NCBI GenBank assembly: GCA_951406725.2
Contig: OX597817.1
Coordinates: 96,534,001 to 96,598,000, forward strand
DNA length: 64,000 bases
Reading direction: 5' to 3'
Source of the DNA: Octopus vulgaris
Taxonomy: Eukaryota
In this document: one piece after another, positions 4,835-64,000 of the stretch
Position numbering within the stretch: position 1 is the first letter of the stretch
Layout of the letters: each line of letters begins with the position of its first letter
Position numbers and translations under genes: made by a program
Notes under the pieces: generated by a model
Databases searched by the model: none
Seen by the model: only the letters and a program-made list of their open reading frames with translations
What the model was told of the DNA's origin: nothing

Positions 4835-5395
4835 GGGTGTCCAGAAAGTTTGTGCTAACTTTTAGTAGCTTACCTTTCAACTTATTTTAGAACATGGTTG
4901 AGTTCATAAAATAGGATTTGACTATACCTCTGTTTAGAGCACAGTTTAAGGTATCTTCGTGGAAGAAGGTTCATGTTCCTATAATCTGTGTTAATTCTGT
5001 AAACCTTTAAAATGGAAGATAAGAAAGTTCATTTTCAGCACTTGATGCTTTGGGAACCAGACAAAAATTGCTGCAGTTCGGCTGGGATGTGTTACCCCAC
5101 CCTCCATATTCATCAAATATTGCTCCTTCAGATTTCCACTCTTAAGGTCGCTGCAGAATAGTCTTAATGGTAAAAATTTCAATTCCTTGGATGATGTAAA
5201 AAGACACCTTGATGAATTCTTTGCCATGAAACCACCTTAGTTCTGGGAAGAGGGTATTTTCAAGTTAAAGGAAAGATGGAGACGCATTGTGCAACAAAAT
5301 GGTTCATATTTGGTTGATTAAAAATGTAATGGCAAGTATTTATTGACCTTTTTGTTTCCTTTAAAAATCAGCACGAACTTTCCGGACAACCTAAT
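4835..5395 (+). mobile_element. Internally deleted mariner relic
   Basis: Imperfect TIRs (GTGTCCAGAAAGTTTGTGCT / AGCACGAACTTTCCGGACAAC); HPPYSSNIAPSDFH motif at ~5098. Confidence 0.78.
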
Positions 5396-6194
5396 ATAAT
5401 ATACATACATATAATTTATATATATATAATTATATATATATATATAATTTATATATATATAATTAGATTAGATTAGATTAGTGCTTCATCATGGATTAGC
5501 AACCATTATATCAGCCTATGCCCCTCAGCCGGGGCTACCCGATGGACAGAAAGACCAATTCTATGACACCCTACTGCAGACTACCTCGTTGACGAACGAC
5601 AGAGACCTTCTCTTTGTGGTTGGTGACTTCAATGGTCACGTTGGACGACGTGCTGGGGGCTTCCATGGTGTACATGGGGGCTATGGTTATGGTTCCCGCA
5701 ACGAGGAGGGAACCAGGCTGCTGGAGTTCTGCGATGCAAATGATCTTATGGTTTGCAACACTAACTTCAGGAAACCTACCAGCCACCTAGTCACCTACCA
5801 ATCGGGCCGACATACCAGCCAAATTGACTACATCCTTGCCAGGAAAAGGGAAAGATGGCTGCTTATAAATGCCAAAACCTTCCCAGGTGAAGAATGTACC
5901 CCACAACATAAACTGGTAGTTAGCGACTTTAGGATCAGGACGACCAGAAGATGACCAACATGGAGAAGAAGGATCTGGAAGCTTAAAGATCCCGCGAATG
6001 GACAGAGACTTAGGGACATATTACTTGAAGCCTGTGACAAAGCAGAAGGGGATATAGCTTCACATGAGGTAGAAGACAACTAGAGGTTTCTAAGGGACAA
6101 CCTGCTGAGAGCCACGTGTAGCAGCATAATAGTCAACTGCTACAAAGGTAAGGGTGACGATTTAGATACAAATAATTACAGAGGTATCAAGCTG

Positions 6195-7553: not shown

Positions 7554-7756
7554 GACCTTTGGAAGTATGCTGTGCGTGGGAAGACCTGGCAGGACAAGTG
7601 AGACCACAACCCGTGGTCTCTACCTGGGACGTAGCCAGCCCACTTATGCATACCGTTCCTTCTTGTGACACAAACCCTACTTGTGAAGACCTGTTGAGGC
7701 AAGTGAAAATCGAAATCGAAATCTTTCAATATCAATGGAAATTGTAGCTGAGATAC

Positions 7757-7975
7757 CAGTGCCGGTGGCACGTAAGAGAACCATCCGAACGTGGCTGTTA
7801 CCTGCGCCGCCCCAACTGGCCTCCGTGCCGGTGGCACGAAAAAGCACCATCCGATTGTGGCTGTTGCCAGCTTCGTCTGGCCCCCGTGCCGGTGGCACGT
7901 AAAAAGCACCATCCAATCGTGGCTGTTTGCCAGCCTCGTCTGGCACCTGTGCAGGTGGCACATAAAAATCACCCA
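7757..7975 (+). repeat. RTE 3' UTR tandem array, 4 units of ~61-67 bp
   Basis: Repeated GTGCCGGTGGCACGTAAAAAGCACCATCC...GCCAG..CTGGC. Confidence 0.9.
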
Positions 7976-8264
7976 CTACACTCTCGGAGTGGTTGGCGTT
8001 AGGAAGGGCATCCAGCTGTAGAAACACTGCCCGATCAGACTGGGCCTGGCACAGCCTCCTGGCTTTCCAGACCCCAGTTGAACCGTCCAACCCATGCTAA
8101 CATGGAAAACGGACGTTAAACGATGATGATGATGATGATGATAATATTTATATGTATATATATGGGGGGGGTTGTACATGTATATATAATATTTATATAC
8201 ATATAATTTATATATATAATATATATATGTACATATGTATATCATATATATATATAAATAAATA

Positions 8265-9288: not shown

Positions 9289-11703
9289 ATCATCATCATC
9301 ATCATCATCGTTTAACGTCCATTTTCCGCGCTAGCACGGGTTGGACGGTTCGACCGGGGTCTGGGAAGCCAGGGGCTGCACCAGGCTCCAGTCTGATCTG
9401 GCAGTGTTTCTACAGCTGGATGCCCTTCCTAACGCCAACCACTCCGCGAGTGTAGTGGGTGCTTTTTACGTGCCACCGGTACAGGTACCAGGGGAGTCTG
9501 GCATTGGCCACAATCGGTTGGTGCTTTTAACGTGCCACCGGCACGGAAGCCAGTCAAGGCGGTGCTGGCGTCGGCCATGTTCAGATGGTTCTTTTTATGT
9601 GCCACCGGCACAGAAGCCAGTCAAGGTGGCGCTGGCATTGGCCACGTTCGGATGGTGCTTTGTATGTGCACCGGCACAGAAGCCAGTCGAGGCGGTGCTG
9701 GCATCGGCCACGTTCAGATGGTGCTTTTTATGTGTCACCGGCACATGTATCACAACTACTATTTCCATTGATATTTATTTCTATGTTCATGTACTTGACT
9801 CAATAGGTCTCCTCAAGCACAGCGGGATGTTCTGGTATCCAAGGTACTTTGAATGGGCAGGGGCTATGCGGGACTGGTGCAGGAAGCAGCCCGGGTCTTT
9901 GCAGTCACAGCATATCTCCAGAGATCTCGGTCCTTTGTCATTGCCTCTGTGAGGCCCAACGCTCTGAGGTCATGCTTGACTACCTCATCCCATGTCTTCC
10001 TGGGTCTTCCTCTCCCCCTGATACCTTCAACTGTTTGGGAGCGGCACTTCTTCACACATCTCTGCTCATCCATCCGCAGTACATGACCATACCATCACAA
10101 GCGTCGCTCTTGCACACCACATCTGATGCTTCTTATGTCCAGCATTTCTCTCAGGGTGCTTACCCTCTGTCGTGCGTGCACACTGACATTACACATCCAG
10201 CGGATCATGCTAGCTTCATTCCTTTCAAGTCTACGCATGTCCTCTGCAGTCACAGCCCATGTTTCACTACCATGAAGCATGACAGTTCGCACACATGCAT
10301 CATACAATCTACCTTTCACTCTGAGCGAGAGACCCTTTGTCGCCAGTAGGGGTAGGAGCTTTCTAAACTTTGCCCAGGCTATTCGTATTCTAGTGGTGAC
10401 ACTCTCTGAGCATCCACCTCCACTACTAACCTGGTCACCCAGGTAGCGGAAACTATCAACTACTTCTAGTTTCTCCCCCTGGAGTGTGATGGAATCTGTT
10501 TTCTGAGTATCTGTGGTGTCTATTGTCCCTGTGCATCTGCCGCACATGAAAGCTATCTTATCAGTTAATTTCCCTTTGATGATGCATCCATAGCTTACAC
10601 TGGGTACATCTTATGGAGTTTCTACCTACGCCTTACCTACAGATCGAGCAGGGCCACCTGCCCGAGGTTGTGTGTGCTGAGTTCACCTTTCTGCTCACTA
10701 TAACTTTGGTCTTTGCTACATTTACTCTAAGGCCCTTTGATTCTAACCCTTGCTTCCACACCCGAAATTTCTTTTCGAGTTCCGGTAGTGATTCTGCTAT
10801 GAGAGCCAAGTCCTCAGCATAGAGGAGCTCCCAGTGGCAACCTGTTTTGAATTCCTCTGTTATTGCCTGGAGGACTATGATGAATAAAAGGGGACTGAGG
10901 GCTGAGTCTTGGTGTATACCTACTTCTACCCGGAATTCTTCACCATATTCGTTGCCTATTCTAGCCTTGCTGACAGCCTCTCTGTATAGGGCCTGTACAG
11001 CGCTTATTAGCCATTCGTCAATCTCCAGTTTCGGCAATGATTACCAGATAAGGGATCGGGGGACCCTGTCAAAGGCTTTCTCTAAGTCCACAAAAGCTAT
11101 GTAGAAGGGTTTAGCTATGTAGAAGGGTTTAGCTAGGTACTTCTCCTGCAGTTGTCGGACCAGGAATATAGCATCAGTGGTGCTTCTACCTGGCACAAAA
11201 CTGAACTGCATCTCATCTAAGCAAATTCTTTCCCTAAAGAGATGGGCTATGACCCTCTCTGAGACCTTCATCACCTGACCCAACAGTTTAATACCCCTAT
11301 AGTTATTTCTATCTAGAGCATCACCTTTACCCTTGTAGCAGTTGACTATGGTGCTGCTACGCCAGTCATTGGGTATGACTTCATTATGAACTACCTGGTT
11401 TACAATACGGGTGACTACGCCATAGCCCACATAACCAGATGTTTTAAGCATCTCAGCAGTGATTCCTGATGGGTCGGAGGCTTTACCTCATTTCATACCC
11501 TTAATTGCCTTAACTACAAGGGAGCTGTCTATTCGGATAGCTGGTCCCTCTACTGGGTCAACATTTGGCAGGCTCTCCTCCTCCCATTCATTCTCCACAT
11601 TCAGCAGTCTTTCATAATGGCTTCTCCAAGCCTCTTTCTTTTCACCATCATTAAAAGCGAGTGCCCCATCATCCATGCGGACACATTTCTCTCCTGTAAC
11701 ATC
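9289..11703 (-). mobile_element. RTE-clade LINE (second subfamily), 5'-truncated
   Basis: Minus frames: NYRGIKLL, DLEKAFD, YAED, FRYLG, RGRPRKTW; 3' UTR array; (GAT)n tail at ~9290; 18-bp duplication (AKPFYI twice). Confidence 0.93.
9457..9746 (-). repeat. RTE 3' UTR tandem array, 5 units of ~61-67 bp
   Basis: Five copies of GGTGCTTTTTACGTGCCACCGGCAC (with variants) on the plus strand. Confidence 0.88.
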
Positions 11704-14700
11704 AGCTGCTGAGCAAGAATCTTTTTTGTGCATGGCACAAAAGATTGTACAGCAGCTAACCTGGCTTCATCAAACCCAAGCTCGCAGGTGGGACTACCCA
11801 GAATACACAAGACCACCACAGCAAACAGACCCAAGATGGACACCGCCGGGAACAACATACACCTCACCTCGATGCTCCTACTGAACATCAGAGGACTGCA
11901 AACACTCAGTAACAGGACAAAAATCCCGTTCTTGAGAGACTTTGTTGCATGCAATCAAGCCTTATGCATAGCACTTACGGAAACGCACCTGAAACCGGAC
12001 ATAGCAGATGCGGAATTACACATACCACAGTATGTTGTACTACGGACCGACAGAAAAGAAAGGAGTCATGGAGGAGTTGCTATGTACATCCGTGAGGACC
12101 TCACACCCCAGGTCCTTTTGTCATACTCAAACTCGGTGTGTGACACACTAATTGTACATATAAGGCAACTTGATGTAGTTGTGTGTGCTACATATCACCC
12201 TCCAGATGCCCCAAGCCATGTGGGCAAGTTTGAAGACTGCCTTATAAAAATAGAAGAAGTTCTAAGCACATTAGAACAACACATAAGTGTACTTCTTATG
12301 GGAGACTTCAATCTACCCAATGTCAGATGGCCCGAGGGCCTTTCTCTCCCAGGAATGACAAGATGTGAACGAGGACAGGCGAGGTCCCTCCTGAACCTCA
12401 TCAACACCCTGTACATGGAGCAAGTAATACTCCAACCAACCAGGGCAGGTAACACACTGGATCTCTGCTTCACAAATTATATGGATCTCATCCATAATGT
12501 GAAAGTGACACCGACACTACTCTCGGATCACAACATGGTAGAGCTGACCATGTACGGGCTAAAAGAGAGCACGGACATGCAGCCTACAAGAAACCCTCAG
12601 AATCTTTCCAGCTTGAACTACCATAAGGCAAACTGGAAACAAATTGAGAAAGAGATCCTCAAACAAAACTGGCCTGAATGTCTCTCCTCGCCAGACATCG
12701 ACGTGAAACTTCAACAATTCATGTCTGTAATGCAAGCCATATGCTACAAATGTGTCCCAGAGAGAAAGGCCACTGTACACAAGAACAAAATCCCCAGAGA
12801 GAGGAAAATTTTAATGAGACGGCGTACAAAAATTTCAAATCGCCTAAACAAACAAATTGAAAGCAGTGAAAAGTCCCGCCTCAAAATAAAACTGTTGGAA
12901 ATTGAAAAATGTCTGCAACTCTCCCATGAAAAGGAAAGAGCAGACAAAGAAGCCTGGGCTATAGACAACATAAAATCTAACCCCAGAGCTTTCTACAGGT
13001 ATGCCAAAGAAACAGCTACGGTGCACTGTTGGATAGGGCCACTCCTTGAAAAGGATGGCACACTCACAGGAATACCAATGAGGGTAAGTGAAATACTGAA
13101 TGAGGCAATTCAAGAGTGTTTTCACTCCACCCCTTGGGCATTTCCAAATCACCAATCCAACTGACTTCTTTACCACTGCAGATATAAAATCAGAGGCGGC
13201 GACGATAAATTACATCGATATAAAGGAAGACGATGTAATAAAGGCTATAGATGAAATGAAAACAGACTCAGCTACTGGCCCCGATGGATTCCCGGCAATC
13301 CTCCTAAAAGTATGTAAGAGAGTCCTAGCAAGACCACTGCAGTTCCTCTTTCAGAGCTTCCTTGCAGCTGGCAAACTTCCAAGAAAACTGAAGGAAGGTA
13401 AAATATGCCCTGAAGGAAGGTAAAATATGCCCTATTCATAAAGGAGGTAGCAGAGCGGAGGCCAAGAACTACAGACCTATCTCTCTGACCTCACACATCA
13501 GCAAGGTTATGGAACGAATAGTCAGAAGGAAACTGATCACCTTCCTTGAAGAAAATGACTTGCTGCCCGACACCCAACATAGTTTCCGACCAGGGAGAAG
13601 CTGTTTAACTCAGCTCCTACAACACTATGACTGGGTGCTGAAACGACTGCTCAACCACTCAAATGTGGAAGTGATATATCTCGACTTTGCAAAGGCCTTT
13701 GATAAAGTCGATCATGGAATGATATGTCACAAACTGCGTGATCTCAACATAGTTGGAAAACTGGGAGAATGGCTTCATGACTTTCTGGTGGTAGTAGCCA
13801 ATGGGGCCACTTCCATTAACACGCAAATAGTGAGCGGTGTTCCGCAGGGCACTGTTTTGGGACCACTACTGTTCATAATGGCCCTCTCAGACATGCCCTC
13901 AGCCCCGCAGAGAGCCACGATCACAAGTTATGCAGATGATACAAAAGTTTCACAGGCAATACAGAACCCTGAGGACACTAAACGCCTGCAATGTGAGCTG
14001 GACAAAATATACAAGTGGGCTGAAAAGAATAGCATGCAGTTCAATGCCTGAAAGTTTCAAGCTTTATACTATCAGCATGCAAAACTAAATGCAATACCCA
14101 ATGAATACACTGGACCCGGAGGAATTGCAATCCCAGAGGCACAATCAGTGCGTGACCTGGGTATTTACATGAGTGATGACGCAACCTTTTGTGTACATGT
14201 TGCTAAATTGGCAATGAAATGTAGATGACTGGCCGGATTAATTCTCAGAACCTTTAGAACAAGAAACCATGATGGTCCTCTGGAGGACACTTGTCCTAAG
14301 CCACTTTGACTATTGCTCTCAGTTATGGTCACCATCCAGTGTCAAGTTGATCACAGAACTTGAGGCGATCCAACGTAGCTACACGAAGAAGATAGCCTCT
14401 ATGCAGAATATAAGCTACTGGGAAAGACTCAAGGGATTAAAACTATATTCCTTGGAGCGTAGGCGGGAAAGATATGCCATAATATATATCTGGAAGATCC
14501 TGGAGGGACTTGTCCCAAACTTTGGCATCGAGAGTTACACAAATGCCAGAACTGTGCGCCACTGCGTGGTGCCTAGGACTCCAAATTTGCCATCAAGATG
14601 TAGGACAAGATACTGTGATAGCCTGGGCTTCCGAGGCCCACAGCTCTTCAATATCCTCCCGAAGAACCTAAGAGACCTGCATGGGGTGGATGCAGATGTC

Positions 14701-16982: not shown

Positions 16983-19900
16983 TCTCTCCCGCCTTTGCTC
17001 TAGGGAGAAGAGTTTTAATACTTTCAGTCTTTCCCAGTAGCTGATATGTTGCATTGAGACGATCTCCTTAGTGTAGCTTCTTTGAATTGCTTCGAGTTCT
17101 GCTGTTAGCTTTATATTGTGTGGTGACCATAGTTGGGAGCAGTAGTCCAAGCAGCTGAGGACAAAAGTTTTCCACAGGACCATCAGTGTCTCCTTCTCTC
17201 TTGTTCTGAAAGTTCGGAGAATCCATCCACCTAACCGTCTGTATTTTATCACCAAATTAGTAATATGCACTTGGAAAGATGCATCATTGCTCATGTCAAT
17301 GCCCAGGTCACGCACTGATTTTGACTCGGGGATTACAATACTTCCCAGGCCAGTGTATCCAGTCTACATGTCGTTTACCTTTGTGTGCCGGTAGCGCAGG
17401 GCCTGGAACTTACCTGCATTAAACTGCATGTTGTTGTCCTCAGCCCACCTGTATATTGTATCCAACTCTTGTTGCAGATGTGCAATATTTTCAGGGTTTT
17501 CTATTGTATGGGAGACTTTTGTGTCATCTGCATAGCTAGCAAGAGTGGTCATCTTAGCAACTGGGGGCATGTCTGAAAGGGCCTCTATGAACAGCAGTGG
17601 CCCCAAGACAGTGCCCTGTGGAACACCGCTTGTTATTTGTGTTTCCTTGGAGGTGGCTCCATTGGCCACAACTGCCTGCCTTCTATCTTTTAGGAAGTTG
17701 TGCAGCCACTCTCCAAGTTTTCCGCCTATGCCGAGACCACACAGTTTGTGACAAATCATACCATGATCGACTTTATCAAAGGCTTTTGCAAAGTCGAGAT
17801 ATATCACATCCACATTTGAGCCATTTAGTAGCTGTTTTAACACCCAGTCATAGTGTTGCAGGAGCTGTGTTAGGCAGCTCCTACCTGGTCGAAATCTATG
17901 CTGGGTGACAGTCAGCAAGTCATTTTCTTCAAGGAACATGATTAGTTTCTTGCGGGCTATTCGTTCCATAACTTTGCTGATGTGTGAGGTCAGAGAGATA
18001 GGCCTATAATTTTTAACATCTGCTCTGCTTCCTCCCTTATGGACAGGGCATATTACCCCCTCTTTCAATTTGACTGGGAGCTTAACACTTGCAAGAAAGT
18101 TCTGAAAAAGAAGCTGTAGCGGTTTTGCAAGGGCTCGTTTGCATGATTTGAGAAGGATCGCTGGAAATCCATCAGCTCCAGAGGCTGAGTTTGTGTCAAT
18201 CTCATCTATGGCCAGTGTGATATCATCATCTTCAATGTTGATGTACTCAATTTTTGCCTCTTTGGCCACAGGTAAAGTGGCAAAGAATTCTTCTGGGTTG
18301 TTTACTTGCCTGTGTCCTAGAGGTGTAGTGAACACACTTTGGAACTGATTGTTCAGTATTTCACTTATCCTCATGGGATTTCCTGTGAGAGAGCCATCTT
18401 TTTGGAAGAGAGGTCCTATTCTCTGGTGCATTGTGGCTGTCTCTTTGGCAAACTTAAAGAAAGCTTTAGGGTTTGACTTTATATTTTCTCTTACCCAAGC
18501 TTCTTTATCTGCTCTCTCCTTTTCATGAGACTGATGCAGACTTTTCGCAATTTCCATTAGCATTCTCTTGAGCCGAGACTTCTCACCACTTTTGGTGTGC
18601 TTGCTCAGGCGGTTCGCAATCCTTGTCCGTCGTCTCATAAGAATCTTCCTTTCTATAGGGATCCTGCTTTTGTTTTTGTGTGTGCTGGCCCTGCACACTG
18701 GGACATATTTGTCACATATGGCTTGTATTATAGACATGAAGCGTTTGTGTTTCATGTCAATGTCTGGTGTGGAGAGACATTTAGGCCAATCCTGTTTGAG
18801 GATCTCTTTCTCAATCAACTTCCAATTTGCTTTATGAAAGTTTAATTTGGAGAGATTGTGGATGCTTCGTATAGGCTGTGTGTCTGTGGAGGCTTTTGGT
18901 CCATACATAGACAGCTCTATTATGTTGTGATCCGAGATCATTGTCGGCATCACTTTAACATTATGGATAATATCCATATTGTTTGTGAAGCAGAGATCCA
19001 GTATATTATTTGCCCTGGTTGGTTGCAGCACTATTTGCTCCATGAAAGAGGCATTTGTGAGATGGGGCAGGGACTCTGCCTGTGTCTGCTGATGGTGTGT
19101 CATCCCTGGGAGCATTCTGCCCCCCAGGCCATTCCATATTGGGGAAGTTAAAGTCACCCATGAAGAATACACTGTTGTGTTGTTCCAGGTTGGTGAGAAC
19201 TTCTCCTATTTTTGTTAGGCAGTCTTCAAACATGCCTGTGTGATTTGGGGCATCCAGTGGGCGATATGTAGTACATATGACGATATTCAGTTGTCTTATG
19301 TGTACAATTTGAGTGTCACACACTGAGTTTGAATATGACAACAGGACCTGGGGCGTTAGGTCATCTCGGATGTACATTGCAACTCCACCATGGCTCTTCC
19401 CTTTTCTATCTGAGCGTACGACAACATATTGCGGTATGTGTATTTCTGCATCCCCTATATCAGGTCCAAGATGCGTTTCTATGAGTGCCATGCATATAGC
19501 TTGATTGCATACTGCAAGGTCTCTCAGGAATGAGATTTTCCTTTTGCAGTTTCCTCGCAGCAGCCCTCCTACATTTAGTAGAAATATTTTTGTGGTGTGT
19601 GTGTTGGTGTCTGTGGTGGCCATCCTACATCTGTTGGTGGTGGCCTTATGTGATGGTAGTTCTAGCTTTGTAGCCAGGTCAGCTGCTGGACAATTTTTTG
19701 TGCCATGCACAAAAAAGATTGCTGTTTAGCTGCTGCCCTTCTCACATCTGGGTGAAGCTGGCCATTTGTTGGGCTATGCAGTATCTTTTTTGGACCGCAT
19801 ATCGTCTTTCAGGAGTAGTCAGTGCGCCATTTTACCTTCTTTGATATTTTTTTCTTTTTCTTTTTGTTCTCCCCATGAGAGGGATTTTTGTCTTGTGTCC

Positions 19901-24479: not shown

Positions 24480-25345
24480 GCTACTTATATAAATTAAGGA
24501 AGCCCAATGATAGACTTAGTTATATTAATGTAGGTTCATGCCATCTCCCTATAGTATTCAAATTTTAGATAAAAATATTAGTAAGAGAATTTCTAGCCTC
24601 TCCTCCAATAAGGACATTTTTAATAGCGTTGCCCAAGGCTTTAAAAGATAGTGGTTTTAGTGAAAAAATAAAATTTACACCTGTTACTAGCCCAACAGTA
24701 AAGAAGAGGAAAAATAGAAATAGGAAGATCATCTGGTTTACACCCCCTTACTCACCCGAGGTGACCTTCAATATAGGTAAATATTTCTTAACATTGATTG
24801 ATAGACATTTTCCAGTTAACCATATTTATAGGAAACTCTTCAATAAACACAATTCAAAAATTAGTTTTAGTTCAACTACCAGTTTTAAAAATATAATCAC
24901 ACATAACACACAAAAACCACAACAAGAAAACAGCTGTTCATGCAGGAATAAAAAATTGTGCCCGCTAAATGGAGCTTGCATGTCCGAGACCATCATCTAT
25001 GAAGCTACCAGGGACTCTATGACGACTAAAGACACCATTTCGACGAAGAAATACGTGGGCCTTACAGGGGGTAATTTCAAGGCCAGGTTCAATAACCACA
25101 CCTTGAGTTTTAGGCACTGGAACAAAAGAAAAGTGACAAAATTATCCAATCATATTTGGTTATTAAACAATAAAGGTGTCAATTACAACATCCATTGGAA
25201 GATTTTGGCCAAATGTAAGCCCTACAGCAACGGCAGCGGAAAGTGCGATCTATGCGACATGGAGAGATGGCTTATCTGGAAAAGCAGCTTAGACCCTACT
25301 ACATGTCAAGGACAGAACTTTTCGGATCATGCCTACATGTGACAA
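24480..25345 (+). mobile_element. Penelope-like fragment (RT end, linker, GIY-YIG)
   Basis: KIIWFTPPYS, CSCRNKKLCPLNGAC, TIIYEAT..YVGLT..FKARFNNH, YSNGSGKCDLC. Confidence 0.9.
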
Positions 25346-25719: not shown

Positions 25720-28700
25720 GAAACTGGAAGCCCTCCTGTACCAGTAGTCCTATAAAGAAATGAGTATTTAGAAAAAAGGAAGGACCGAAAACAAAAATAA
25801 GGAGGGAAAGGGAAGAAAAGGCAAAACAACCAAAGCTGAAACCCCAACCCACCACACAAACAGCAGAGAACCCCATGGAGGATCCAATGCCACCCAGTAC
25901 ACTTCAGGAAAGAAGAAATCTGGAAGGCACTGAAGAACCTGTAAATTCTACCTGCGGGGCAAATGTTGGCATGAGGAGGACGGCAAAAACTGCCGGTTCA
26001 CCCACCCGACACCCTGCCAGAACTTCAGGGGACTCAAAGAAAAGAGCTTTACTGACGGAAGACAAGAAATGTCTCCCAGGAAAACTTTCAAAAAAGAAGT
26101 GTGCTCCTCAGATGTTCTGCGCAACGCAACAGCTGAGCAAGAGTCTTTTTTATGCTTGGCACAAAGAATTGTCCGGCAGCTAACCTGGCTACACCAAGCA
26201 CAGAGAAGGAACCCTGCCCACCACTATGCAAGTTCACCACAGTCAACAGACATGGGATGGCCTCCCCTAACGCCTGCACAGCCGTCACCCCAATACTTTT
26301 ACTAAATATTGGGGGCCCTGTTGCATCAAAGTAGAAACAAAATTTCTTTCCTGAGAGATCTTACTGCATGCAATCAAGCCCTATGCATAGCACTCATGGA
26401 AACTCACCTCAGCCCTGATATAGAGGACGCAGAAGTACACATACCAAACTATGCCATACTGCAAACAGACAGAAGGGAAAGGAGCCATGGTAGAGTTGCT
26501 GTATACATCCGAGATGACCTCACACCCCAGGTCTCAATGACATACTCAAACTCGGTATGTGTCACTCTAATTGTATACATAAGACAACATAATATAGTCA
26601 TATGCAATACATATTGCCCACCAGATGCCCCAAATCACATAGGCAAGTTTGAAGATTGCTTCACAAGAATGAAAGAAATCCACATGAATCTGGAACACCA
26701 CATGACCATATTTCTTATGGGTGATTTCAACTTCCCCAACTTCAAATGGCCTGAAGGTCTCATACTCTCAGGAATGAATCATTTCAAGCAAGTGCAGGTG
26801 GAGTCCCTGCTCAACCTCACCAACGCCTTATTCGTGGAGCAAGTTGTACTCAAACCAACTAGGGCGAATAACATTCTGGATCTCTGCTTCACGAACAATA
26901 TGGATATCATTCATGATGTGAAAGTGACACCGACATTAGTTTCGGATCACAACATAATAGAGCTGTCTATGTTTGGGCCAAAAGTAACCAGAGACATACA
27001 GCCTAAAGGAAGCACCCAAAATCTCTCCAATCTGAACTTCCACAAAGCAGATTGGAAATCGATCCAAAAAGAGATCCTCAGAGAGTACTGGCCGGAATGT
27101 CTCTTCACACCAGACATTGACATGAAACTAGAATGTTTCATGTCTTCTGTGCAAGCCGTAGGCCAGAAATATGTCCCAGAGCACAAGGCCAAAACAAATA
27201 GGAGCAAGATTCCTAGAGACAGGAAAATCCTCATGAGACGACGGATGAAGGTTGCAAATCGTCTCAACCAACATCCCAAAAGTAGCGAAACATCCCGCCT
27301 AAAAACAACACTGATGGAGATCGAAAAAAGGCTGCAACAATCCTATATGAGGGAGAAAGCAGACAAAGAAGCCTGGGTTATAAAAACCATTAAATCAAAC
27401 CCAAAGGCCTTCTTTCATTACATGAAAGAAACAGTCTCAGTGCACTACAAGATAGGACCCCTCCTCCAAAACGATGGCTCCCTCACAGACAGTCCAACTA
27501 AGATCAGTGAGATGCTGAATGACCAGTTCAAAAGTGTCTTTACCACCCTGTTGGAACACAGACAAGTGAACGAACCAGTGGACTTCTTTGCCGCCTCACC
27601 TATAACCAGCGAGGCGATTACAATAGAATGTATTGACATTAGCGAAGAAGATGTCCTACTAGCCATAGATGAAGATGACACAAACTCAACTGCTGGTCCA
27701 GATGGTTTCCCAGCAATCCTCCTCAAACCTCGTAAACATGCCCTGGCAAAACCCCTCGAGATTCTCTTCCAGAGCTTTCTTTCGAATGGCAAACTGCCAA
27801 GCAAGCTGAAGGAGGGAATAATATGCCCAATACATAAAGGGGGGGGTAGAGCAGATGCCAAAAACTATAGGCCTATCTCTCTGACTTCACACATCAGCAA
27901 AGTCATGGAACGGATAGTCAGAAAGAAACTAATCGCATTCCTTGAGGAAAATAATTTGCTGAGTGATACCCAGCATGGCTTTCGACCAGGTAGGAGCTAC
28001 CTGACCCAGCTCTTACAACATTATGACTGGGTGTTGAGGCAGTTACTCAACAAATCAAATGTGGACGTAATATACCTTGATTTTGCAAAAGCTTTTGACA
28101 AGGTGGATCATGATTTGCCACAAACTGCGTGACCTCGGCATAGCTGGAAAACTTGGAGTGTGTTACATGACTTGCTGAAAGATAGGAGTCAGGCAGTAGT
28201 GGTTAATGGAGCCACCTCTATGAACACACAAATAGTGAGCGGTGTTCCACAGGGCACTGTCTTGGGACCACTGCTTTTTATAGTGGCCCTCTCAGATATG
28301 CACTCAAATGCCCGGATAGCCACTCTGGCAAGCTATGCAGACGATACGGAAGTCTCGCAGAAAATACAGAACCCCAGCGATGTTGCATACCTGCAGCAGG
28401 AGTTGAACTCAATCTACAGATGGACTGAGGATAATAATATGCAGTTTAATGCTGAAAAATTCCAGGCCCTGTGCTACCAGCATCCAAAACTGAATATTAA
28501 ACTTACAGGATACACCGGTCCACAGGGAATTTCAATCCCAGAGCCTAAGTCTGTGAGGGATCTGGGTATCGACATGAGTGATGATACCTCTTTCCAAGTG
28601 CACATTACCAGATGGCAACAAAGTGCAGACGACTGGCTGGATGGATCCTAAGAACATTCAGAACCAGAGATAAGGAAACCATGATGGTCCTCTGGCGGAC

Positions 28701-40196: not shown

Positions 40197-40613
40197 AGGC
40201 AAGTGAGGATCAGAATCGAAATCGATCAATGGAAATTGCAGATGTGTTACCAGTGCCGGTACCATCCGTTCGCAACCGTTGCCAGCGCCGCCCCGACTGG
40301 CCTCGTGCCGGTGGCATGTAAAAAGCACCATCCGTTCGTGTCCGTTGCCAGCCTCGCCTGGCCCCCGTGCTGGTGGCACGTAAAAAGCACCATCCATTCG
40401 TGGCCGTTTGCCAGCTCTGTCTGGCACCTGTGCGGGTGGCACGTAAAAAGCACCCTCTACACTCACGGAGTGGTTGGCGTTAGGAAGGGCATCCAGCCGT
40501 AGAAACACTGCCAGATCTGACTGGGCCTGATGAAGCCTTCTGGCTTCACAGACCCCAGTTGAACCGTCCAACCCATGCTAGCATGGAAAACGGACGCTAA
40601 ACGATGATGATGA
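40197..40613 (+). mobile_element. RTE 3' UTR-only insertion with array (3 full units plus 1 partial)
   Basis: Matches 7697-8141; (GAT)n tail. Confidence 0.9.
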
Positions 40614-40659
40614 TACACATACATATATACATACATATACACACATGCACATATTCTTT

Positions 40660-41000: not shown

Positions 41001-41006
41001 ATAAAA

Positions 41007-41190
41007 TCATCATTATCATTGTTTAATATCCGTTTTCCATGCTGGCATAGGTTGGATGGTCTGACTGAGGTCTGGAAAGCCAATGGCTGCACCAGGCTCT
41101 AATTTGATCTGGCAATGTTTCTACAGCTGGATGCCCTTCCTAATTCCAACCACTCTGAGAGTGTAGTGGGTGCGTTTTACATTCCACCAA
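41007..41190 (-). mobile_element. RTE extreme 3' fragment
   Basis: TTTCTACAGCTGGATGCCCTTCCTAA..CCAACCACTC block and degenerate (CAT)n. Confidence 0.82.
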
Positions 41191-42216: not shown

Positions 42217-43762
42217 GTTTCAGGTGTGGAAGCAAGGATTAGAATCGAAGGGCCTTAGAATCAACCTAGCCAAAACCAAAGTCCTAATAAGTAGGAAGGT
42301 AGACCAATTACAAACGCCTTCAGGTAGATGGCCCTGCTCGATCTGTAAAAAAGGTGTAGGTAGAAACTCTATAAGGTGCACCAAGTGTAAGCCATGGACA
42401 CATAAGAGGTGCAGCAATGTCAAAGGAAGGCTAACTAGAAAAATAGTTTTTGTCTGTGGCAGATGCTCAGGAGCAATAAACACTGAAAATGTGCAGAGAC
42501 CAACTTCTACCACGTTCCAGGGAGAAAAACTAGAAGTAGTTGATAGCTTCCACTACCTAGGTGACCAAGTCAGTAGCGGAGGTGGGTGTGCTGAAAGTGT
42601 ATCTGTTAGAGTAAGAATAGCCTGGGCAAAGTTTAGAGAGCTCTTACTCCTGCTGGTGATAAAATGCCTCTCGCTCAGAGTAAGAGGCAGACTGTATGAT
42701 GCATGTGTACATACAGCCATACTACATGGTAGTGAAACATGGAGTGTGACTGCTGAGGATATGCGTAAGCTCGCAAGAAATGAAGCCAGTATGCTCCGAT
42801 GGATGTGTAATGTCAGTGTTCATAATCGACAGAGTGTAAGTACCTTGAGAGAAAAGTTGGACCTAAGAAGCATCAGTTGTGGTGTGTAAGAGAGACGTTT
42901 GCGCTGGTATGGTCATGTGACGAGAATGGCTGAAGATAGTTGTGTGCAAAAGTGCCACACCCTAGCAGTTGAGGGAACCTGTGGAAGAGGTAGACCCAGG
43001 AAAACCTGGGACGAGGCAGTGAAGTACAACCTTCGAACTTTAGGTCTCACCAAGGAAATGACTAGAGACCGAGATCTATGGTAGTATGCTGTGCGTGAGA
43101 AGACCCGGCAAGACTAGTGAGACCATAACCCGTGGCCTCTACCTGGTATGTAGCCAGTCAACTTATACATACCTTTCCTTCTTGGGACACAAAACTCCAC
43201 TTGTGAAGACCCATTGAGGCAAGTGAAAATCAAACCAAATCAAATCAGATATCAGAAAGCAGAATCAAAATCGAAGTCGATCAACATCAATGGAAATTGC
43301 GACTGTGATACCAGTACCAGTAACAAGTAACGAACCATCCGATCATGGCCGTTGCCAGTGCTGCCCCGACTGGCCTCCGTGCTGGTGACATGTAAAAAGC
43401 ACCATCCGTTCGTGGCCGTTGCCAGCCTCGCCTGGCCCCCGTGCCAGTGGTACGTAAAAAGCACCATCCGTTCATGGCCGTTGGCAGTCTCGCCTGGCCC
43501 CCGTGCTGGTGGCACGTAAAAAGCACCATCCGTCCGTGGCCGTTTGCCAGCTCCGTCTGGCACCTGTGCAGGTGGCACGTAAAAAGCACCCACTACACTC
43601 ACGGAGTGGTTGGCGTTAGGAAGGGCATCCAGCTGTAGAAACACTGCCAGATCAGACTGGGCCTGATGCAGCCTTCTGGCTTCACAGACACCAGTTGAAC
43701 CGTCCAACCCATGCTAGCATGGAAAGCGGACGCTAAACGATGATGATGATGATGATGATGAT
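42217..43762 (+). mobile_element. 5'-truncated RTE LINE with PHD-like insert and array (4 units plus 1 partial)
   Basis: Closely similar to 6700-8141; array at ~43330-43592; (GAT)n tail. Confidence 0.93.
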
Positions 43763-43784: not shown

Positions 43785-43919
43785 ATCATCATTTAGCGTC
43801 CGCTTTCCATGCTAGCATGGGTTGGACGATTCAACTGGGGTCTGTGAAGCTGGAAGGCTTCGTCAGGCCCAGTCAGATCTGGCAGTGTTTCTACGGCTGG
43901 ATGCCCTTCCTAACGCCAA
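43785..43919 (-). mobile_element. RTE extreme 3' fragment, inverted against the preceding copy
   Basis: Reverse-complement match to 43610-43745. Confidence 0.9.
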
Positions 43920-47036: not shown

Positions 47037-47513
47037 TTACTTATTATATTATATTAAACTTTCTAATACCTTTTTGATAGTTATTTTTAAAATAAATAAA
47101 TAAATAAATAAATATAAGTATTAAAAAATTAAAAGTTTAAAAATTTATAAATTTTAAATTTTAAAAATATATTTAAAAAATTTATAAATAAAATTAAAAA
47201 TTTTTAATTTAAATAATTTAATTTTAAATTTTATATTTTATATATTTTGTATATTATATTAATTATATTCATTTTTATGTTTTGGTTTATGTTTTTCACT
47301 GTTTGATTTGCCTAATAGTGGTTTTATCTCTAATTTAATTTAAATTTATACTGTGAAATTTGATTTAATCCTAAATCTAATTTTTCCCTGTAAGTTTGGA
47401 TTTACTCCCTAATAATATTATTATTATTATAATTATTATTATTATTATTATTATTATAATTAATATATTGATAAATTACGTTTATTGAGTATAATATCTC
47501 AATTTCGTAAGTT

Positions 47514-49121
47514 ATGGAACTTACAGGTAAGATAGAACCACTATTTTGGAAATCATATTTGAAGGATATTCCAATACCCTCTAGGAAAGAATATATTTTG
47601 AAACTTATTAATAATATTAAGGATTTTGTTTCTAGGGTTAAATGGAAAGCCTACTATTATAACTATAATATATCTAATTTTAATGATATTATGAATGATA
47701 ATGATTTTACATCAAATTTTAAATCTAAAAAAGAACCCCCATATAATAGAGATTTACAGATCTTAGAAGATAATATTTGGAAGGTGGTGAAAAACATTAA
47801 ATTTCATAAATACCCAAACAGACATAATGAATATTTAAGAAATTTAGCAATTAGAATTAAAGAAATGAGAAATATGGATGGTATTATTGTACAATCTGAT
47901 AAAACTAGGAATCTCTATAAATTATATGATAAACTTTTAGAGAAAGAGATAATTAAAAAATATAAAATTGTTCCAGATAGTACACTTTATACTATAAATA
48001 AGGCCTCTAAATTAGGCATGATGAACTATGAGTTGGATAATAAAACTGAACCTATGCACCCTAGAATTACTTTGAAAGACCATAAAGATAATTTTTATTC
48101 AGACCCTAAAGTTAGATTAATTTGTCCATGTAATTCAGACCTTGGTAAATTGAGTAAATTCATTTTAGATAAATATATTAATAAATTAAATAAATTTAAC
48201 TACCTAAAATTATGGTTTAGTAATAATAATACTTTAAATTGGTTTAATTATATTAAAGAAAAAAATCAAATAGATATCGATAATTACTATTCTTCTATTA
48301 ATGAAATTGTGTTTAATAAAGCCCTTAATATACACAATGAATAAGGTGGGAATGACTTTTGAAAAGGTTAATGTAATTAAAATGGCTAGGAAATCGTTTA
48401 TTAGATACAATAATAAATTATGGGTTAGGAAGGATACTAGGGACTTTTTTATATACCTATGGGGCACCCGATTCTGCACAAGCTATAGATTTGGTAGGTA
48501 TTTATCTATTATCTGAACTTCAATTAGAAAATTTAAAACTAGAGGGTGGTTTATATAGGAATGACCTTTTATTAATTACTAAGAATTGCACTAATAGGAA
48601 TCTAGAATTATATAAGAAAAAACTTTATAGTTTCTTTAAAAGATATGGTTTAAGTATTACTATATATAATGAGAATTATAATGTTAATTATTTAGATGTT
48701 AATTTTAATCTAATAATGGGTAAAACATAACCATATCATAAATTTAATGAAAACCTTAAATATATAAATGTTAATAGTAATCATCCACCATCAATTAAAA
48801 ATCGTTGATTAATAATATAAGTAAACATATATCATTACTTTCTTATGATTTAGAGATTTTTAATAAACATGCACCTTATTACAATGAGGCCCTACGAGAG
48901 GCAGGTTATAATAATAATATTAAATTTTTTAATAAAAATAAAGATAAAAATATTAATAATTATAATAATTATGTTAGTCATATTAGTAGTAATTGTAATT
49001 ATAAAAATAAAAATAAAAATAATATTAAGAATATGACAAATTTTAATATTAATTCAATAAATGTTAATTATAATCATAATTTTAATTTTGATAATATTAT
49101 AAAGAAATATAATAATTGTAT

Positions 49122-49194
<73 letters not shown>

Positions 49195-49907
49195 AAGAAG
49201 AAGAAGAAGAAGAAGAAGAAGAAAATTTGGTTAATTGTTCCTTATGGTGCTCAAGTTAAAACTAACATTATTAAAGAGATTTTAGATATTATTGAACAAT
49301 TCATTCATGATAATCGTAAATATAAAAAAATTTTCTCTAGTAATAACTTTGGAGTAGGTTATTCTACCACTAATAGTGTAGGTAACATTATTTCTTCTTT
49401 TAACAAATAAATTTTATAAATCATACCAATAATAATAAAGATAAGACACTCATTAATTGTACATGTAGAGATAAAACTAAGTGTAAATTTAATAATAAAT
49501 GTGATTTAAACGATGTTGTTTATAAATGTATAGTTACAATAATTAATGAGAATAATAGGAATAGTAATAACTTAAACGCCATTTATATAGGGTCCACTTC
49601 CTCTAAAATAAAGTTAAGAATCGCACAGCATATGCATTCATTTAAAAATAAAAACCTAATTAACTCTACAGGGCTTAGCAAATACATTTGGGGGCTTAAA
49701 ACCCAAAGTATTAAGTATGATTTAAGGTGGGAAATAATAAGTAAGGCCAAATCATATAGTATAGGAGGCAATTATTGTTATTTATGTTCTAATGAGTTTA
49801 AAGAAATTTTATTTTATGATCATAATTTAGTGAATACTTTGGATGAGGGTAAAATTAAATGCAGACACAGGTTACTTTACTTATATAATAAATTTCTAGA
49901 TAAATAA
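47514..49907 (+). pseudogene. Penelope RT-GIY-YIG polyprotein, frameshifted
   Basis: SDKTRN, ITLKDHK, VRLICP, DIDNYY, GLYRND(L), YLDV, SNHPP, IYIGST, YSIGGNYCYLC. Confidence 0.88.
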
Positions 49908-58508: not shown

Positions 58509-58755
58509 ATCATCATCATCATCATCATCATCATCATTTAGCATCCGCTGTCCATGCTAGCATGGGTTGGACGGTTCAACTGGGGTCTGAGAAGCCAGAA
58601 GGCTGCATCAGACCCAGTCTGATCTGGCAGTGTTTCTATGGCTGGATGCCCTTCCTAACGCCAACCACTCCGTGAGTGTAGTGGGTGCTTTTTACGTGCC
58701 ACCCGCACAAGTGCCATCGGAGCTGGCAAACGGTCACGAACGGATGGTGCTTTTT
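58509..58755 (-). mobile_element. RTE 3' fragment with ~1.5 array units
   Basis: (CAT)n followed by the reverse complement of the RTE 3' end. Confidence 0.88.
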
Positions 58756-59430
58756 GTTTATTATAAGTTTAGTTAATGACACGATAATTGAAAGCTAAGC
58801 AAACCTTTTTATTAAAGTTATTTTAATAATTTATGTTATATTGTATTATATTGGATACTATATAACTACTGATTGTTAATTTGATTGTATAATTATTTAG
58901 TTGTTGAAGATATGTATTTCATTATTAGATTATAACTGTACGTGATTTGTAAGTTATAACTTAGCCAACGAGATATATAGAACATTGAATAGTTATACGG
59001 TTCTTTTAAGATAGGTTATATGTTTATAATTTGCTTTTTCATCTTTAATTTTTTAGTATATTTCATAAATATATTACATTAATATTTAATATTTGCGTAA
59101 GTAATAATGGACTAATTAATTTATTTAGTTTTCCTTTTATGTCTATATATTTATTGATAGAGTAAATTTTAGATCTTAATTATTATATTTATTGATAATA
59201 ATTTAGTTATTATTCTTAAATATTTTATAATTATTAGATTTGAACTTAAATTTAAAAATATGAATAGTGATTATTTTGTTAAATAATTTGGTAATTAGAT
59301 ATTGACTATAACTGAGTTTAGGATATTCATGAGTTTATTATGTTTTTTAAAGCCATATTATATCTTAATAGATAAATACATTTTTCTATCTATTTCTTAA
59401 AAAATGAATATTTAACATAATAATTGGGTT

Positions 59431-60964
59431 TTCAGAGCATTAACCTCTGAAAATCTGCAGAAAACAACTTCCGTCACTTTCCAGGGGGAAAAACTAGAAG
59501 TAGTTGATAGCTTCCGTTATCTTGGTGACCAAGTCAGTAGTGGGGGTGGGTGTGCTGAAAGTGTAACGGCTAGAGTAAGAATAGCCTGGGCAAAGTTTAG
59601 GGAGCTCTTACCTCTGTTGGTGACTAAAGGCCTCTTGCTCAGAGTAAAAGGCAGACTGTATGATGCATGTGTACGAACAGCCATGCTACATGGCAGTGAA
59701 ACATGGGCCGTGACTGCTGAGGACATGCGTAAGCTCGCGAGAAATGAAGCTAGTATGCTCCGTTGGATGTGTAATGTCAGTGTTCATAGTCGACAGAGTG
59801 TAAGTACCTTGAGAGAAAAGTTGGACCTAAGAGGCATCAGATGTTTTGTGCAAGAGAGACGATTGCGCTGGTATGGTCATGTGGCGAGAATGGATGAAGA
59901 TAGGTGTGTGAAAAAGTGCCACACCCTGGCAGTTGAGGGGACCTGTGGAAGAGGTAAACCCAGGAAAACCTGGGTCGAGGTGGTGAAGCACGACCTTCGA
60001 ACTCTAGGTCTCACCAAGGAAATGACCAGAGACCGAGACCTATGGAAGTATGCTATGCGTCAGAAGACCCGGCAAGACCAGTGAGAACAATCAAAATCAA
60101 ATCATATATCAGAAAGCAGGGGTTAAGTGATCCATCCGTTCGTGTCCGCTGTCAGCCTCGTCTGGCACCCATGCCGGTGATACGTAAAAGCACCATTCGC
60201 TCGTGGCCGTTTGCCAGCTCTGCCTGGCCCCCGTGTCGGTGGCACGTAAAAGCACCATCCGTTCGTGTTCGTTGCCAGCCTCGCCTGGCCCCGTGCCGGT
60301 GACACGTAAAAGCACCGTCCGTTCGTGGCCGTTTGCCAGCTCTGTTTGGCCCTGTGTCGGTGGCACGTAAAAGCACCATCCGTTCATGTCCGTTGCCAGC
60401 CTCGGATGGCCCCCGTGCCGGTGACACGTAAAAGCACCGTCCGTTCGTGGCCGTTTGCCAGCTCTGTCTGGCAACCGTGTCGGTGGCACGTAAAAGCACC
60501 ATCCGTTCGCGTCCATTGCCAGCTCTGTCTGGCCCCGTGTCGGTGGCACGTAAAAGCACCATCCGTTCGTGTTCGTTGTCAGCCTCGGCTGGCCCCCGTG
60601 CCGGTGACACATAAAAGCACCGTCCGTTCGTGGCCGTTTGCCAGCTCTGTCTGGCCCCGTGTCGGTGGCACGTAAAAGCACCATCCATTCGTGTCCGTTG
60701 TCAGCATCGCTGGCCCCGTGCCGGTGACACGTAAAAGCACCATCCGTTCGTGGCCGTTCACCAGCTCTGTGTGGCACCTGTGCAGGTGGCACGTAAAAAC
60801 ACCCACTACACTCGCGGAGTGGTTGGCGTTAGGAAGGGCATCCAGCCGTAGAAACACTGCCAGATCTGACTGGGCCTGACGAAGCCTTCCAGCTTCACAG
60901 ACTCCAGTTGACCCGTCCAACCCATGCTAGCATGGAAAGCGGACGCTAAATGATGATGATGATG
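59431..60964 (+). mobile_element. 5'-truncated RTE LINE with 9-bp target-site duplication
   Basis: AATTGGGTT at 59422-59430 and 60965-60973; post-RT ORF 59617-60084; long array; (GAT)n tail. Confidence 0.95.
60132..60804 (+). repeat. RTE 3' UTR tandem array, 11 cores at 59-62-bp spacing
   Basis: CACGTAAAAGCACC-type cores at ~60181, 60243, 60303, 60364, 60425, 60487, 60547, 60608, 60669, 60728, 60790. Confidence 0.95.
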
Positions 60965-61107
60965 AATTGGGTTGTATGACATTATCCTAATGGTTTAAGT
61001 TTCTAATTTGATAATAGAGTTTTTTATAAGAAAAAAATTTTTTTTTTTTAATTTATTTATTAAAATATATAGTTTAAATCTATTTGCTTATTTATTTAAC
61101 TATTATC

Positions 61108-61729: not shown

Positions 61730-64000
61730 ATCTATCATGTCGTCTAAGCCTGGCTCAGCTACCTACAAATCGAAACTGAGATCTGCGAAAAGGGCTTGTT
61801 CAGTTAATAAGGTGATCAGTGATATCAAGCTTTCACATGAAGACCCTGAAATCAAGATTTCTCATCAAGAAGATGGTCTTACTAACAAACATCTCAACGA
61901 GCAGTTGCTGTTGCTTAAACAAGAGGTCGAGCACCTTAAATCTATTGTTGCTGAATTACAGAATTAACAAACTGAATTCCATTCAAAGTCTCGTATTGAC
62001 GCAGAACCACCCTTGATTTCTTCCCTAAAGACTTCCAAACTGAAGGGATCAAAATCGAAGCGGTCAAAGAAGGTGAAAGAACCGGCGGTCGTTTCCACTC
62101 ATGACCCTATCTGTGTGGATTCTTCCTCATCTGCCATTTCGCTCCCGGAGGTTCCCCAACCTGAATTGAGGAGCGTAGACTCAAACCCACCTGAAGACCA
62201 TTGTTCTCCAAAAAAGAAGAAATGTAGTCAAAACAACAGTGGGGCAGATTTAGCTGCGAAACCTGCTCAAGATCAAATCTGTTTGGATTCTCCCTCATTT
62301 GTCCTTCTCATCAATGCTATTGCTCAACCAATTCTGAATGATCTTGATGTGAGTTCATCTGGGGAGTGGTGCTCCTCCAAAACGAAGAAGAGGCAGTGCA
62401 GTTCAAAACCAGGCGGGTAACTTATGACCACTAAACCCATTCCGATTGACCCCAACGGCTACAAAACCGCTCTTTCTAATTTATCCGATGAAGAATCGAA
62501 TGCTGCAGTTCACAGTAGAGAACAGAACGACCATTTTGCCCACTCAAGATCAGCAATCATTTATGGTAAAGCTGAATCCACCTGTGATACAGGCATAAAC
62601 CACCTAAAAGATGACAAATTTTGTTTCCGTTTTAGTTGGAGAATTGTCCTCTGTCAATGAAAATGTCAGTATCCATAAGGTTGCTTGGCTAGGAAGATTC
62701 CAAGTGAACACAACCTCAGACACTAGACCACGCCCAATAAGAGTAATCTTTTCTTCCGATCAGGAGGCTTCAACCTTTCTGAACAGAGCTCAGAAGCATG
62801 CCTGGGAGGACCCCAATATGGGTTTTTGTGAGGAATATTCACTGAGAGAGAGAATTCGCCGGAGAAACCTGATATCCGAGCTGAAGATGAGAAAACAGAT
62901 GGGAGAGAAGGGTTTATGCATCCAAGATGGACAAATAATCAAGTCCTACCTCTGGTTGCATGCTGTAGTGCTGACAGGGAAAGTGAATCGAGGGCAAAAC
63001 GAAGTAAAGTAGATACCCCCGACAACGATGCTATATCTGATACCCCTTATTCAGCTTGTTCCCTAATTCCCGCCCGTCAAACTTCACAGCTCAGCATCAT
63101 CTATACCAACTCCTTATTTCCAAAGTTCAGCAAATTATTTACACAGGCCCTGCGTGATTCCCCAGATGTGATAGCTATCACCAAGACTTGGCTGACTCCA
63201 GCAGTAAAGGACTCAGAAATCCACCTACAAGGCTACACTCTCTTCAGATGTGACAGAGAAAAAAGGTGAGGTGGAGGTGTTGCTGTGTATGTCAAATCTA
63301 ATCTCAAACCATCCAGCTGTATTCTACCCACTAATGCTCAACCTACAACAAAATTCGATGCCGTCTATTGCAAGCTGAGCCTATCCGGGTTTTGCCTGCC
63401 CGTGTTAGCTGTCTACAGGCCGCCTCTTGTCGACCCCCAGGACGATGCTCATTTACTCGAAGCAATAAGATTTGTTTCGTCTTCTCATGAATGTTTGAAA
63501 TTTGGAGACTTCAATGCTCCCACAATCGACTGGCCCGCATCCATTTGTACATCTTCCCGGTTCAACCAGGCCCTTCTTGACATGGCTGAAGATTGTTTTC
63601 TATCGCAACATGTTGAATCTCCGACAAGGCATCGGTCTGGGCAGCAGTCATCTATGCTGGATCTGGTATTCTCCCGCTATCCAAGATCAGTGTCAGGCTT
63701 ATATGTGTGCACCACTCTTGCCAAGAGTGATCACGCGGTCCTGAAGTTCAACATGCACACAACTTTTTCTATGCCCAAGACTACTTCACTGCCACATAGA
63801 GTCTTCTCTGCAATCAATCTTGAAATTCTAACCGAGGCTTCTACGCTTCTGGACTGGCGATCCCTGATGACGATGTCCTCAGTTGACGAACTATGGTCGT
63901 CCCTCAAAGCATATATAATCTGGTTGACTGACCAGGCACTTCCCATTGGGCTTCCCAAGAAGAAGAAACACAAGCCCTGGGTGATGAAGAAGGTTAAATG
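61730..64000 (+). mobile_element. CR1/L2-group LINE of a different family (ORF1 and APE domain), runs off the window
   Basis: Coiled-coil-like segment and RPRPIRVIF in ORF1; PDVIAITKTWL, GYTLFRCDR, GGVAVYV, GDFNAP, LDLVFS, SDHAVL. Confidence 0.87.

Follow-up and report, generated by a model that had tools for sequence, protein, structure and literature searches.

A tandem array of Nin/Deu-like stems in the 3' UTR of an octopus RTE-type LINE, with alternating junctions that probably descend from one amplified dimer

The long conservation of SINE body domains has been considered a major enigma, and none of these domains has been found in LINE sequences, according to the accessible part of PMC5804259, where the Inv part of Nin is said to be capable of forming conserved hairpins and possibly to signal template switching. 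Hagfish SINE2-7_EBu represents Deu (PMC7245038, accessible portion). Several other elements, namely, Bov-A and the hagfish SINE1-1, 2-1, 2-9 and 2-10_EBu, combine a piece of an RTE 5' UTR with an RTE 3' end (available portions of PMC5786205 and PMC7245038), and LINEs of the stringent type, such as eel UnaL2, end in a terminal 3' stem-loop followed by short repeats (PMC1636434, available part). In octopus, the described RTE-clade LINEs include the RTE-BovB class (PMC8967140) and RTE-2_OV (PMC9115989), as far as the accessible text of these papers goes. Here we analyze a 64,000-nucleotide stretch of Octopus vulgaris DNA (hereafter, the window), in which a Nin-like stem recurs in a tandem array behind the open reading frame of such a LINE. 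Neither an array of this kind nor a Nin motif within a LINE was found described in the literature, with the caveat that repeat libraries or subscription papers may hold the family; a full-text search with the junction motifs returned no relevant paper, and the motifs were absent from the four of the eight supplement files of PMC9115989 that were covered.

In this locus, the ORF fragment, the array and the tail are bracketed by a single 9-bp target duplication (Table 1); among the other window copies, one candidate duplication was detected in the four tested, within simple-repeat DNA. The ORF-bearing copies in the window all (4/4) end in the same array and tail, and therefore the array belongs to the 3' UTR of the LINE. 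This copy, an RTE-type LINE truncated at its 5' end, has the array at 60132-60803 as its 3' UTR. The ORF fragment shows 86% amino-acid identity to the window copy at 6084-7550, which carries RVT_1, and many of the 120 relatives listed are about 1,050 aa long and contain PF03372 and PF00078 (APE and RT, in some cases with PHD). A PHD-like zinc finger 3' of the reverse transcriptase is weak in the 6084-7550 copy, and PF00628 is detected in many of the listed relatives. The 64-kb window contains no full-length copy of this family. The 3' UTR is about 600-880 bases long in the family, about 880 here, and is short in L015, L016, L019 and L020, four of the RTE-type LINE contigs described below. A short 3' UTR is typical of RTE-clade LINEs although not strictly defining. 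By architecture, microsatellite tail and expansion in octopus, the family falls in the same clade as the described octopus elements of the RTE-BovB class and RTE-2_OV (PMC8967140 and PMC9115989, accessible portions), but differs from RTE-2_OV, in which the microsatellite starts where the ORF ends (PMC9115989, same portion), in having a 61-67-bp array in the 3' UTR.

Table 1. Coordinates of the LINE insertion and of its array, junction and tail features, numbered from the first base of the window
Feature	Position	Strand	Remarks
Target-site duplication, 9 bp, 5' copy	59422..59430	+	Identical 9-mer at 60965
RTE-type LINE ORF, 5'-truncated end	59431..60084	+	Reading frame 59416-60084
Unique 3' UTR spacer, shortened	60085..60131	+	About 110 bases that follow the stop in the 43k copy are absent here
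Amplified X/Y dimer array, eleven ~61-bp units	60132..60803	+	TRF
Type A junction, C5·A11	60292..60306; also starting at 60170, 60414, 60597, 60717	+	
Type B junction, U5·G11 wobble	60658..60672; also starting at 60232, 60353, 60476, 60536	+	
Nin/Deu-like motif, example	60653..60682	+	Local stem of 5 bp with A-rich strand and CACC; geometry compatible with an H-type pseudoknot
Y/X recombinant unit	60485..60541	+	Leaves G·U at the focal long-range pair
Terminal junction, A at position 6	60779..60804	+	
Core seen elsewhere in RTE 5' UTRs	60821..60862	+	Stem 60828-60834/60841-60846; possible loop pairing 60837-60840/60858-60861
3' tail stem-loop	60914..60945	+	Two pairs changed on both sides, each in 1/8 copies; similar tail in L016
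(ATG)n microsatellite tail	60950..60964	+	
Target-site duplication, 3' copy	60965..60973	+	

Seven further copies of the LINE were identified in the window, at 6084-8135, 9296-11500 (-), 42221-43760, 40200-40620, 58510-58755 (-), 41004-41180 (-) and 43785-43919 (-). They represent at least two subfamilies, with 61-63-bp and 67-bp units, and several reside inside TA or CA microsatellites; the copy at 43785-43919 (-) is 97.8% identical to the tail of the copy that carries the 60132-60803 array. Starting points differ among the short copies at 40k, 41k, 43.9k and 58k, as expected of truncations. Other mobile elements in the window (689-1402; 11713-14051; 17364-19725 (-); 26306-28132; 24569-25342; 47511-49410; 62000-64000) include a mariner-type transposase and endonuclease/reverse-transcriptase LINEs of another family (one of these domain-scanned), and some further fragments appear Penelope-like by eye, with no Pfam match. 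RTE-type LINE contigs were also encountered in several GTDB metagenome-assembled genomes (L015-L020, with two elements in tandem in L016); these are likely of animal origin and hence probably represent host DNA contamination.

TRF detects the array with a period of 61, 11.0 copies and a score of 836, a tandem array far beyond chance. We number the 15-base junctions 1-15 and denote as A those with an A at position 11 and as B those with a T at position 5. The eleven junction positions reproduce the order reported in an earlier note on this DNA, A B A B A B B A B A followed by the terminal unit, and, as that note had it, a local hairpin would have a C·A mismatch in A and a U·G pair in B, at pair 5:11; the first A junction (60170) is degenerate at two further bases. 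We designate as X the units that lead from the right arm of an A junction to the left arm of a B junction, and as Y those with the opposite arrangement. Divergence is 8.6% among X units and 9.4% among Y units, compared to 20.8% between X and Y, and nine majority substitutions separate the two types. The B-B step in the junction order is due to the unit at 60485-60541, a Y/X recombinant, the 5' half of which has 3 differences from each Y unit vs 5-7 from X, whereas the 3' half has 0-2 differences from X vs 5-9 from Y. Across 14 of the 22 window units (12 units from other window copies plus one X and one Y), the arms of the GCCAG stem vary by 4% and 1%, the loop by 30% and the spacer by 15%. The sequence CACCG lies 3' of three of the seven A junctions in the window, all three in the 60132-60803 array, compared to none of the 20 other junctions.

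Behind the array, a piece of RTE 5' UTR is joined to an RTE 3' end, the combination that characterizes the bipartite RTE modules of Bov-A and the hagfish SINEs, and the hagfish elements carry the same 5'-UTR core (PMC7245038, in the portion available). In contrast to bipartite modules and SINE tails, the module here is the true 3' end behind a LINE ORF, in all four ORF-bearing copies. The core was not found by motif search in two of the three supplement files of PMC4824008 or in the available supplement of PMC5786205, where a Meta- or Ceph-domain identity was sought. The 6-bp stem of the core has a U-A pair in the window family vs C-G in the distant relatives seen, and in 6/6 sequences base pairing between its loop and a downstream UGCC is possible, with a score reached by 27 of 500 shuffles; no Rfam match was obtained (core copies compared: window 60821-60862; L016 186-221 and 3996-4037; L018 2416-2439 (-)). 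The core may be an undescribed pseudoknot of RTE leaders. The tail stem-loop is likely the reverse-transcriptase recognition site; the stretch at 60914-60964 resembles the UnaL2-type tail in its terminal stem-loop and short repeats (PMC1636434, available part), a resemblance confined to this stretch and excluding the array. In an older copy, at 9296-9350 (-), an A-U to G-C double change in the tail hairpin keeps the pair.

The closest likeness of the junctions is to the second stem of the Nin/Deu domain. Compared by eye rather than with an alignment tool, a B junction plus flanking bases agrees with Nla_Nin in 23 of 25 bases and with Lottia_Nin in 22 of 25, and the rough chance of a 25-base Nin match over the available supplement of PMC4758252 is 6e-6. 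We compared by eye 15 consensus sequences, comprising 12 molluscan Nin and Snail SINEs (PMC4758252) and three hagfish SINEs (PMC7245038), taken from the accessible parts of these sources. The matching stem, with a loop of variable length, is single-copy in all 15 Nin/Deu/Snail consensus sequences, and therefore only local pairing is possible there. Pair 5:11 is T·G in 15/15, pair 1:15 is A-T in four and pair 4:12 is C-G in four, so that two compensatory swaps (pairs 1:15 and 4:12) are apparent, and one pair is broken in one of the 15 stems; the sequences are related, and accordingly these counts are not independent events. Given the U·G at the focal pair across the SINE consensus sequences, B would be the usual state. 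By eye, the junctions appear to share with the Nin/Deu/Snail domains (Lottia_Nin, Nla_Nin, Lsa_Nin, Pan_1-3, Sgi_1 and SINE2-7_EBu, in the same accessible parts) the 5-bp stem, its flanks and an A-rich strand. They differ in comprising only about 25 bases of the domain, with a 5-nt loop and a top pair that is usually C-G in the LINE family, and in that they occur in as many as 11 copies, are linked to a GCCAG hairpin and reside in a LINE 3' UTR.

No tRNA or 5S head was detected in the window (0 genes by ARAGORN and 0 Rfam matches, searches that could miss worn heads), and neither the first stem nor the 3' part of Nin was seen by eye beside the junctions. In older units, at 7782-7790 and 9650-9658 (-), the spacer after CACC contains an 8-base reverse complement to part of the loop of the first Nin stem, which may be chance. 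The 32 matches of a Nin-like pattern in viral contigs were read as unrelated. In a viral contig, the intergenic segment L054 281-323 (likewise in L039) can be read as a stem of 7 bp, a strand rich in A and a loop pairing of 7 bp, with a similar core; it has no Rfam match and is possibly a pseudoknot.

Judging from the single-copy homologues compared by eye, the junction stem likely pairs locally. Against this reading, the stability of the region does not exceed that of its shuffles (z = -0.02). A common layout fits all 27 window junctions (one junction with a deletion was omitted): stem S1 (positions 1-5 with 11-15), position 6, stem S2 (CACC with positions 7-10) and 6-7 nt of A-rich strand. 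Of the 27, 25-27 retain S1 pairs 1-4, 20 retain pair 5:11 and 25-27 retain the S2 pairs; in the other window copies, pair 5:11 is kept locally in 14 of 16 junctions. Position 6 shows all four bases, positions 8, 9 and 10 are invariant in 27/27, and no compensatory change was seen in S2. The pairing of GGTG with CACC that had been proposed earlier is possible in the laid-out junctions, and whether the loop GGUG indeed pairs with the downstream CACC to form an H-type pseudoknot we rate at somewhat less than even. In shuffled units, this pattern, which was defined after inspection of the sequence, was met by 3 and 1 of 2000. Such a pseudoknot would consist of a 5-bp S1, a 1-nt L1, a 4-bp S2 and an A-rich L3, and pair 5:11 would lie where the two helices meet, a place at which U·G or C·A would cost little. 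Stacking sums, which include no loop penalty, amount to -17.7 (palindromic junctions), -16.8 (B), -14.3 (A) and -16.7 (A plus CACCG); the extra CACCG in X units would lengthen S2 to 5 bp and regain the 2.4 kcal/mol of stacking lost by A. Because S2 is mostly absent from the Nin homologues (by eye), the pseudoknot would be particular to this LINE family.

Contigs of three runs, carrying three organism labels, were aligned to 60575-61024; a fourth, raw-read run, X23, gave 24 reads, none of them over the array. In the rows listed, the reference allele accounts for 47-49% of the depth at site 60607 (A), for 79-84% at site 60662 (B) and for 68-74% at site 60727 (A), compared to 0-7% at three private variants in the same runs; these shares are biased to the reference, and neither copy number nor linkage can be read from them, so that a subfamily in which A and B are strictly linked may exist. 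In run X2, the summed depth of the reference A/B alleles is 1.1-2.1 million vs 2,500-5,200 for the three private variants. A and B are both abundant alleles of the LINE family, and the possibility that they are private to this locus is ruled out by the depth of the reference alleles. In the contigs of the three runs, A outnumbers B by 1.8-2.0 to 1. Joints between contigs that step back by 121 and 177 bases fit a change in unit number by slippage or misaligned recombination.

In NCBI and UniRef, four proteins of Octopus vulgaris labelled 'hypothetical' (P0121, P0122, P0124 and P0125) are antisense translations of the repeat and are likely annotation artefacts; P0123 was dropped as an unrelated repeat protein. 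Three of the four loci (P0121, P0122 and P0125) contain five B junctions, including a B-B-B run, with no A upstream, in a set that was chosen by likeness to the array, holds no A junction, and in which a single T5 could be post-insertion decay. The P0124 locus has 10 junctions, of which the readable ones (7/7) are palindromic, and therefore expansion of the array needs no A/B. A repeat-pattern scan gave 0 matches in viral contigs and 14 in metagenome contigs, none of them with the repeat; the best metagenome match, L012, lies antisense within a LINE-like ORF that is unrelated, and we attribute it to chance. A model search for the unit found none in the 20 loci chosen from 68.

The earlier note had proposed that each right arm pairs with the left arm of the next junction, so that the A/B difference is a compensatory pair that redefines the fold and each unit closes as a multi-way junction. 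In the array, this pairing is Watson-Crick at the focal position in 8 of the 10 units (four A-U and four G-C), the exceptions being a G·U between 60476 and 60536 and an A·C between 60717 and 60779. This count, the abundance of both alleles in the three runs and an energy 19 kcal/mol better than that of the all-hairpin fold in this array speak for a chain of multi-way junctions with A/B as a selected compensatory pair. Against it, the number of A-U cells, four among the 22 window units, is matched by 56 of 500 shuffles, and all four are X units of this array, which bears out the note's own caution about a single amplified event; its other caution, that the remaining arrays do not clearly show the effect, agrees with the 12 units of the other window copies (10 G-C, two mismatches and no A-U). 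The suggested count of independent double substitutions yields a single lineage, with 0/7 cases compensated outside the array: the A junctions at 9745 and 43378 are followed by C5 (2/2), and five B junctions in three loci, read from the codons of P0121, P0122 and P0125, have G11 upstream (5/5). The excess of A in the run contigs also counts against the chain because the chain needs a B behind each A. X-type units are not Watson-Crick in the proposed CAC/GTG inner stem. In the energy comparison, carried out with folding programs that consider nested structures only and ignore pseudoknots, the chain exceeds the free ensemble by 43.9 kcal/mol over the array (the all-local-hairpin fold by 63.0) and by 7.9-12.5 kcal/mol in 6/6 three-junction pieces; in the other window copies, it is worse than the hairpins at 40k and 43k and equal at 7k. 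With these energies, the origin of the A-U cells from one dimer and the single-copy state of the homologous SINE stem, the proposed redefinition of the fold into a chain by this pair is not supported, and we regard a selected long-range pair as improbable; what stands of the fold reading is that the units are likely structured RNA, with GCCAG/CTGGC kept while the loop varies. The complementarity of A and B most probably reflects one inherited dimer rather than a selected long-range pair. The same nested folding prefers 15-bp junction:junction duplexes (6 bp, a G·U, G·G or U·G, and another 6 bp), with a local hairpin probability near zero and A paired only with B, which makes these duplexes a serious competitor of the local stem. 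A right arm paired to the left arm of another junction always comes with reciprocal arm pairing, and therefore the 6-bp helix proposed earlier is the inner half of a longer duplex. Whole junctions, A and B being near reverse complements, might pair with each other, with the A/B changes acting as a code that favours A:B and suppresses self-hairpins: the duplexes are the lowest-energy nested folds, those between adjacent junctions exceeding the free ensemble by 7.7-12.2 kcal/mol over the array, with the better register within 0.1-0.6 kcal/mol of the ensemble in three-junction pieces, the pair-probability matrix is symmetric, with A mainly pairing with B, and an A-only array is 5 kcal/mol worse than A+B. 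A B-only array, however, has the same minimum energy as A+B (-240.9 kcal/mol), and all-palindromic junctions form the same duplexes with a minimum energy 12.5 kcal/mol better. The partners are often distant, so that no single fold results, the terminal junctions break pair 6:10 in 5/6 copies, and the single-copy Nin homologues cannot form such a duplex. This reading is unlikely, albeit less so than the chain.

The mirror relation of the two changes could also be purely mutational. In quasi-palindrome mutagenesis, a template switch can copy a substitution onto the complementary arm, and a switch of this kind between the inverted arms in the source element would require no selection on RNA shape. 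The arms form a perfect inverted repeat, and both changes are exact mirrors at non-CpG sites. Nevertheless, a local switch predicts T5 and A11 in one junction, a combination seen in 0/27 window junctions and in none of the readable protein-derived ones, and simulations already yield a mirrored Watson-Crick pair by chance in 6-17% of cases (5.6-8.8% if only the arm is considered and 11-17% if the GCCAG stem is counted as well). We give this explanation slightly less credence than the chain. The unit might, finally, be a degenerate or unknown self-cleaving ribozyme, given that in other RTE elements such a ribozyme immediately precedes the same 5'-UTR core, on its upstream side; twister variants are placed at the 5' end of Perere-3 (PMC8501958, accessible part). 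Rfam, however, gave no gathering-score match in the window and none at E up to 5 in 60050-61000, and at most weak, chance-level matches in seven other loci; twister, HDV-like, pistol and hammerhead layouts, compared by eye, did not fit. Cleavage in the 3' UTR would, moreover, sever the ORF from the tail, whereas the ORF, array and tail entered the locus as a single insertion. Among the explanations considered, this one is the least likely.

The reading we favour, with a probability of roughly 0.6, is that of a LINE 3' UTR array of local, Nin/Deu-related stems in which A and B are separately tolerated changes of the top pair in neighbouring units that were copied by amplification of the dimer. 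Under this scenario, the source LINE would have taken over a SINE-like end consisting of a Nin stem, the RTE 5'-UTR core and the RTE tail, and the Nin-like stem with its neighbouring hairpin would have become the repeat unit. The stem might pause the reverse transcriptase or promote misaligned pairing, with units gained, lost and recombined in steps of at least one unit; a role of the stem in template switching is a tentative suggestion. In one lineage, C·A would then have become fixed in one unit and U·G in its neighbour before the pair was amplified. Amplification of a higher-order repeat can mimic covariation.

A Nin-like stem tandemly amplified in the 3' UTR of an autonomous LINE bears on the question of why SINE domains stay conserved. 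Its presence in a LINE fits the ideas of tail exchange and template switching and provides a test set of very high copy number. More speculatively, and with no great confidence, the Nin/Deu domain, which is conserved across animals, may be a functional RNA fold, consisting of a stem onto which an A-rich strand docks, the core of which was captured by an octopus LINE, shrank to a 25-nt pseudoknot and multiplied up to eleven-fold. A plus CACCG would then represent a pseudoknot in a new register, and B a reversion to the wobble that is usual. If this is true, the octopus genome would constitute a natural dose and variant series for the role of the conserved SINE domain in retrotransposition.
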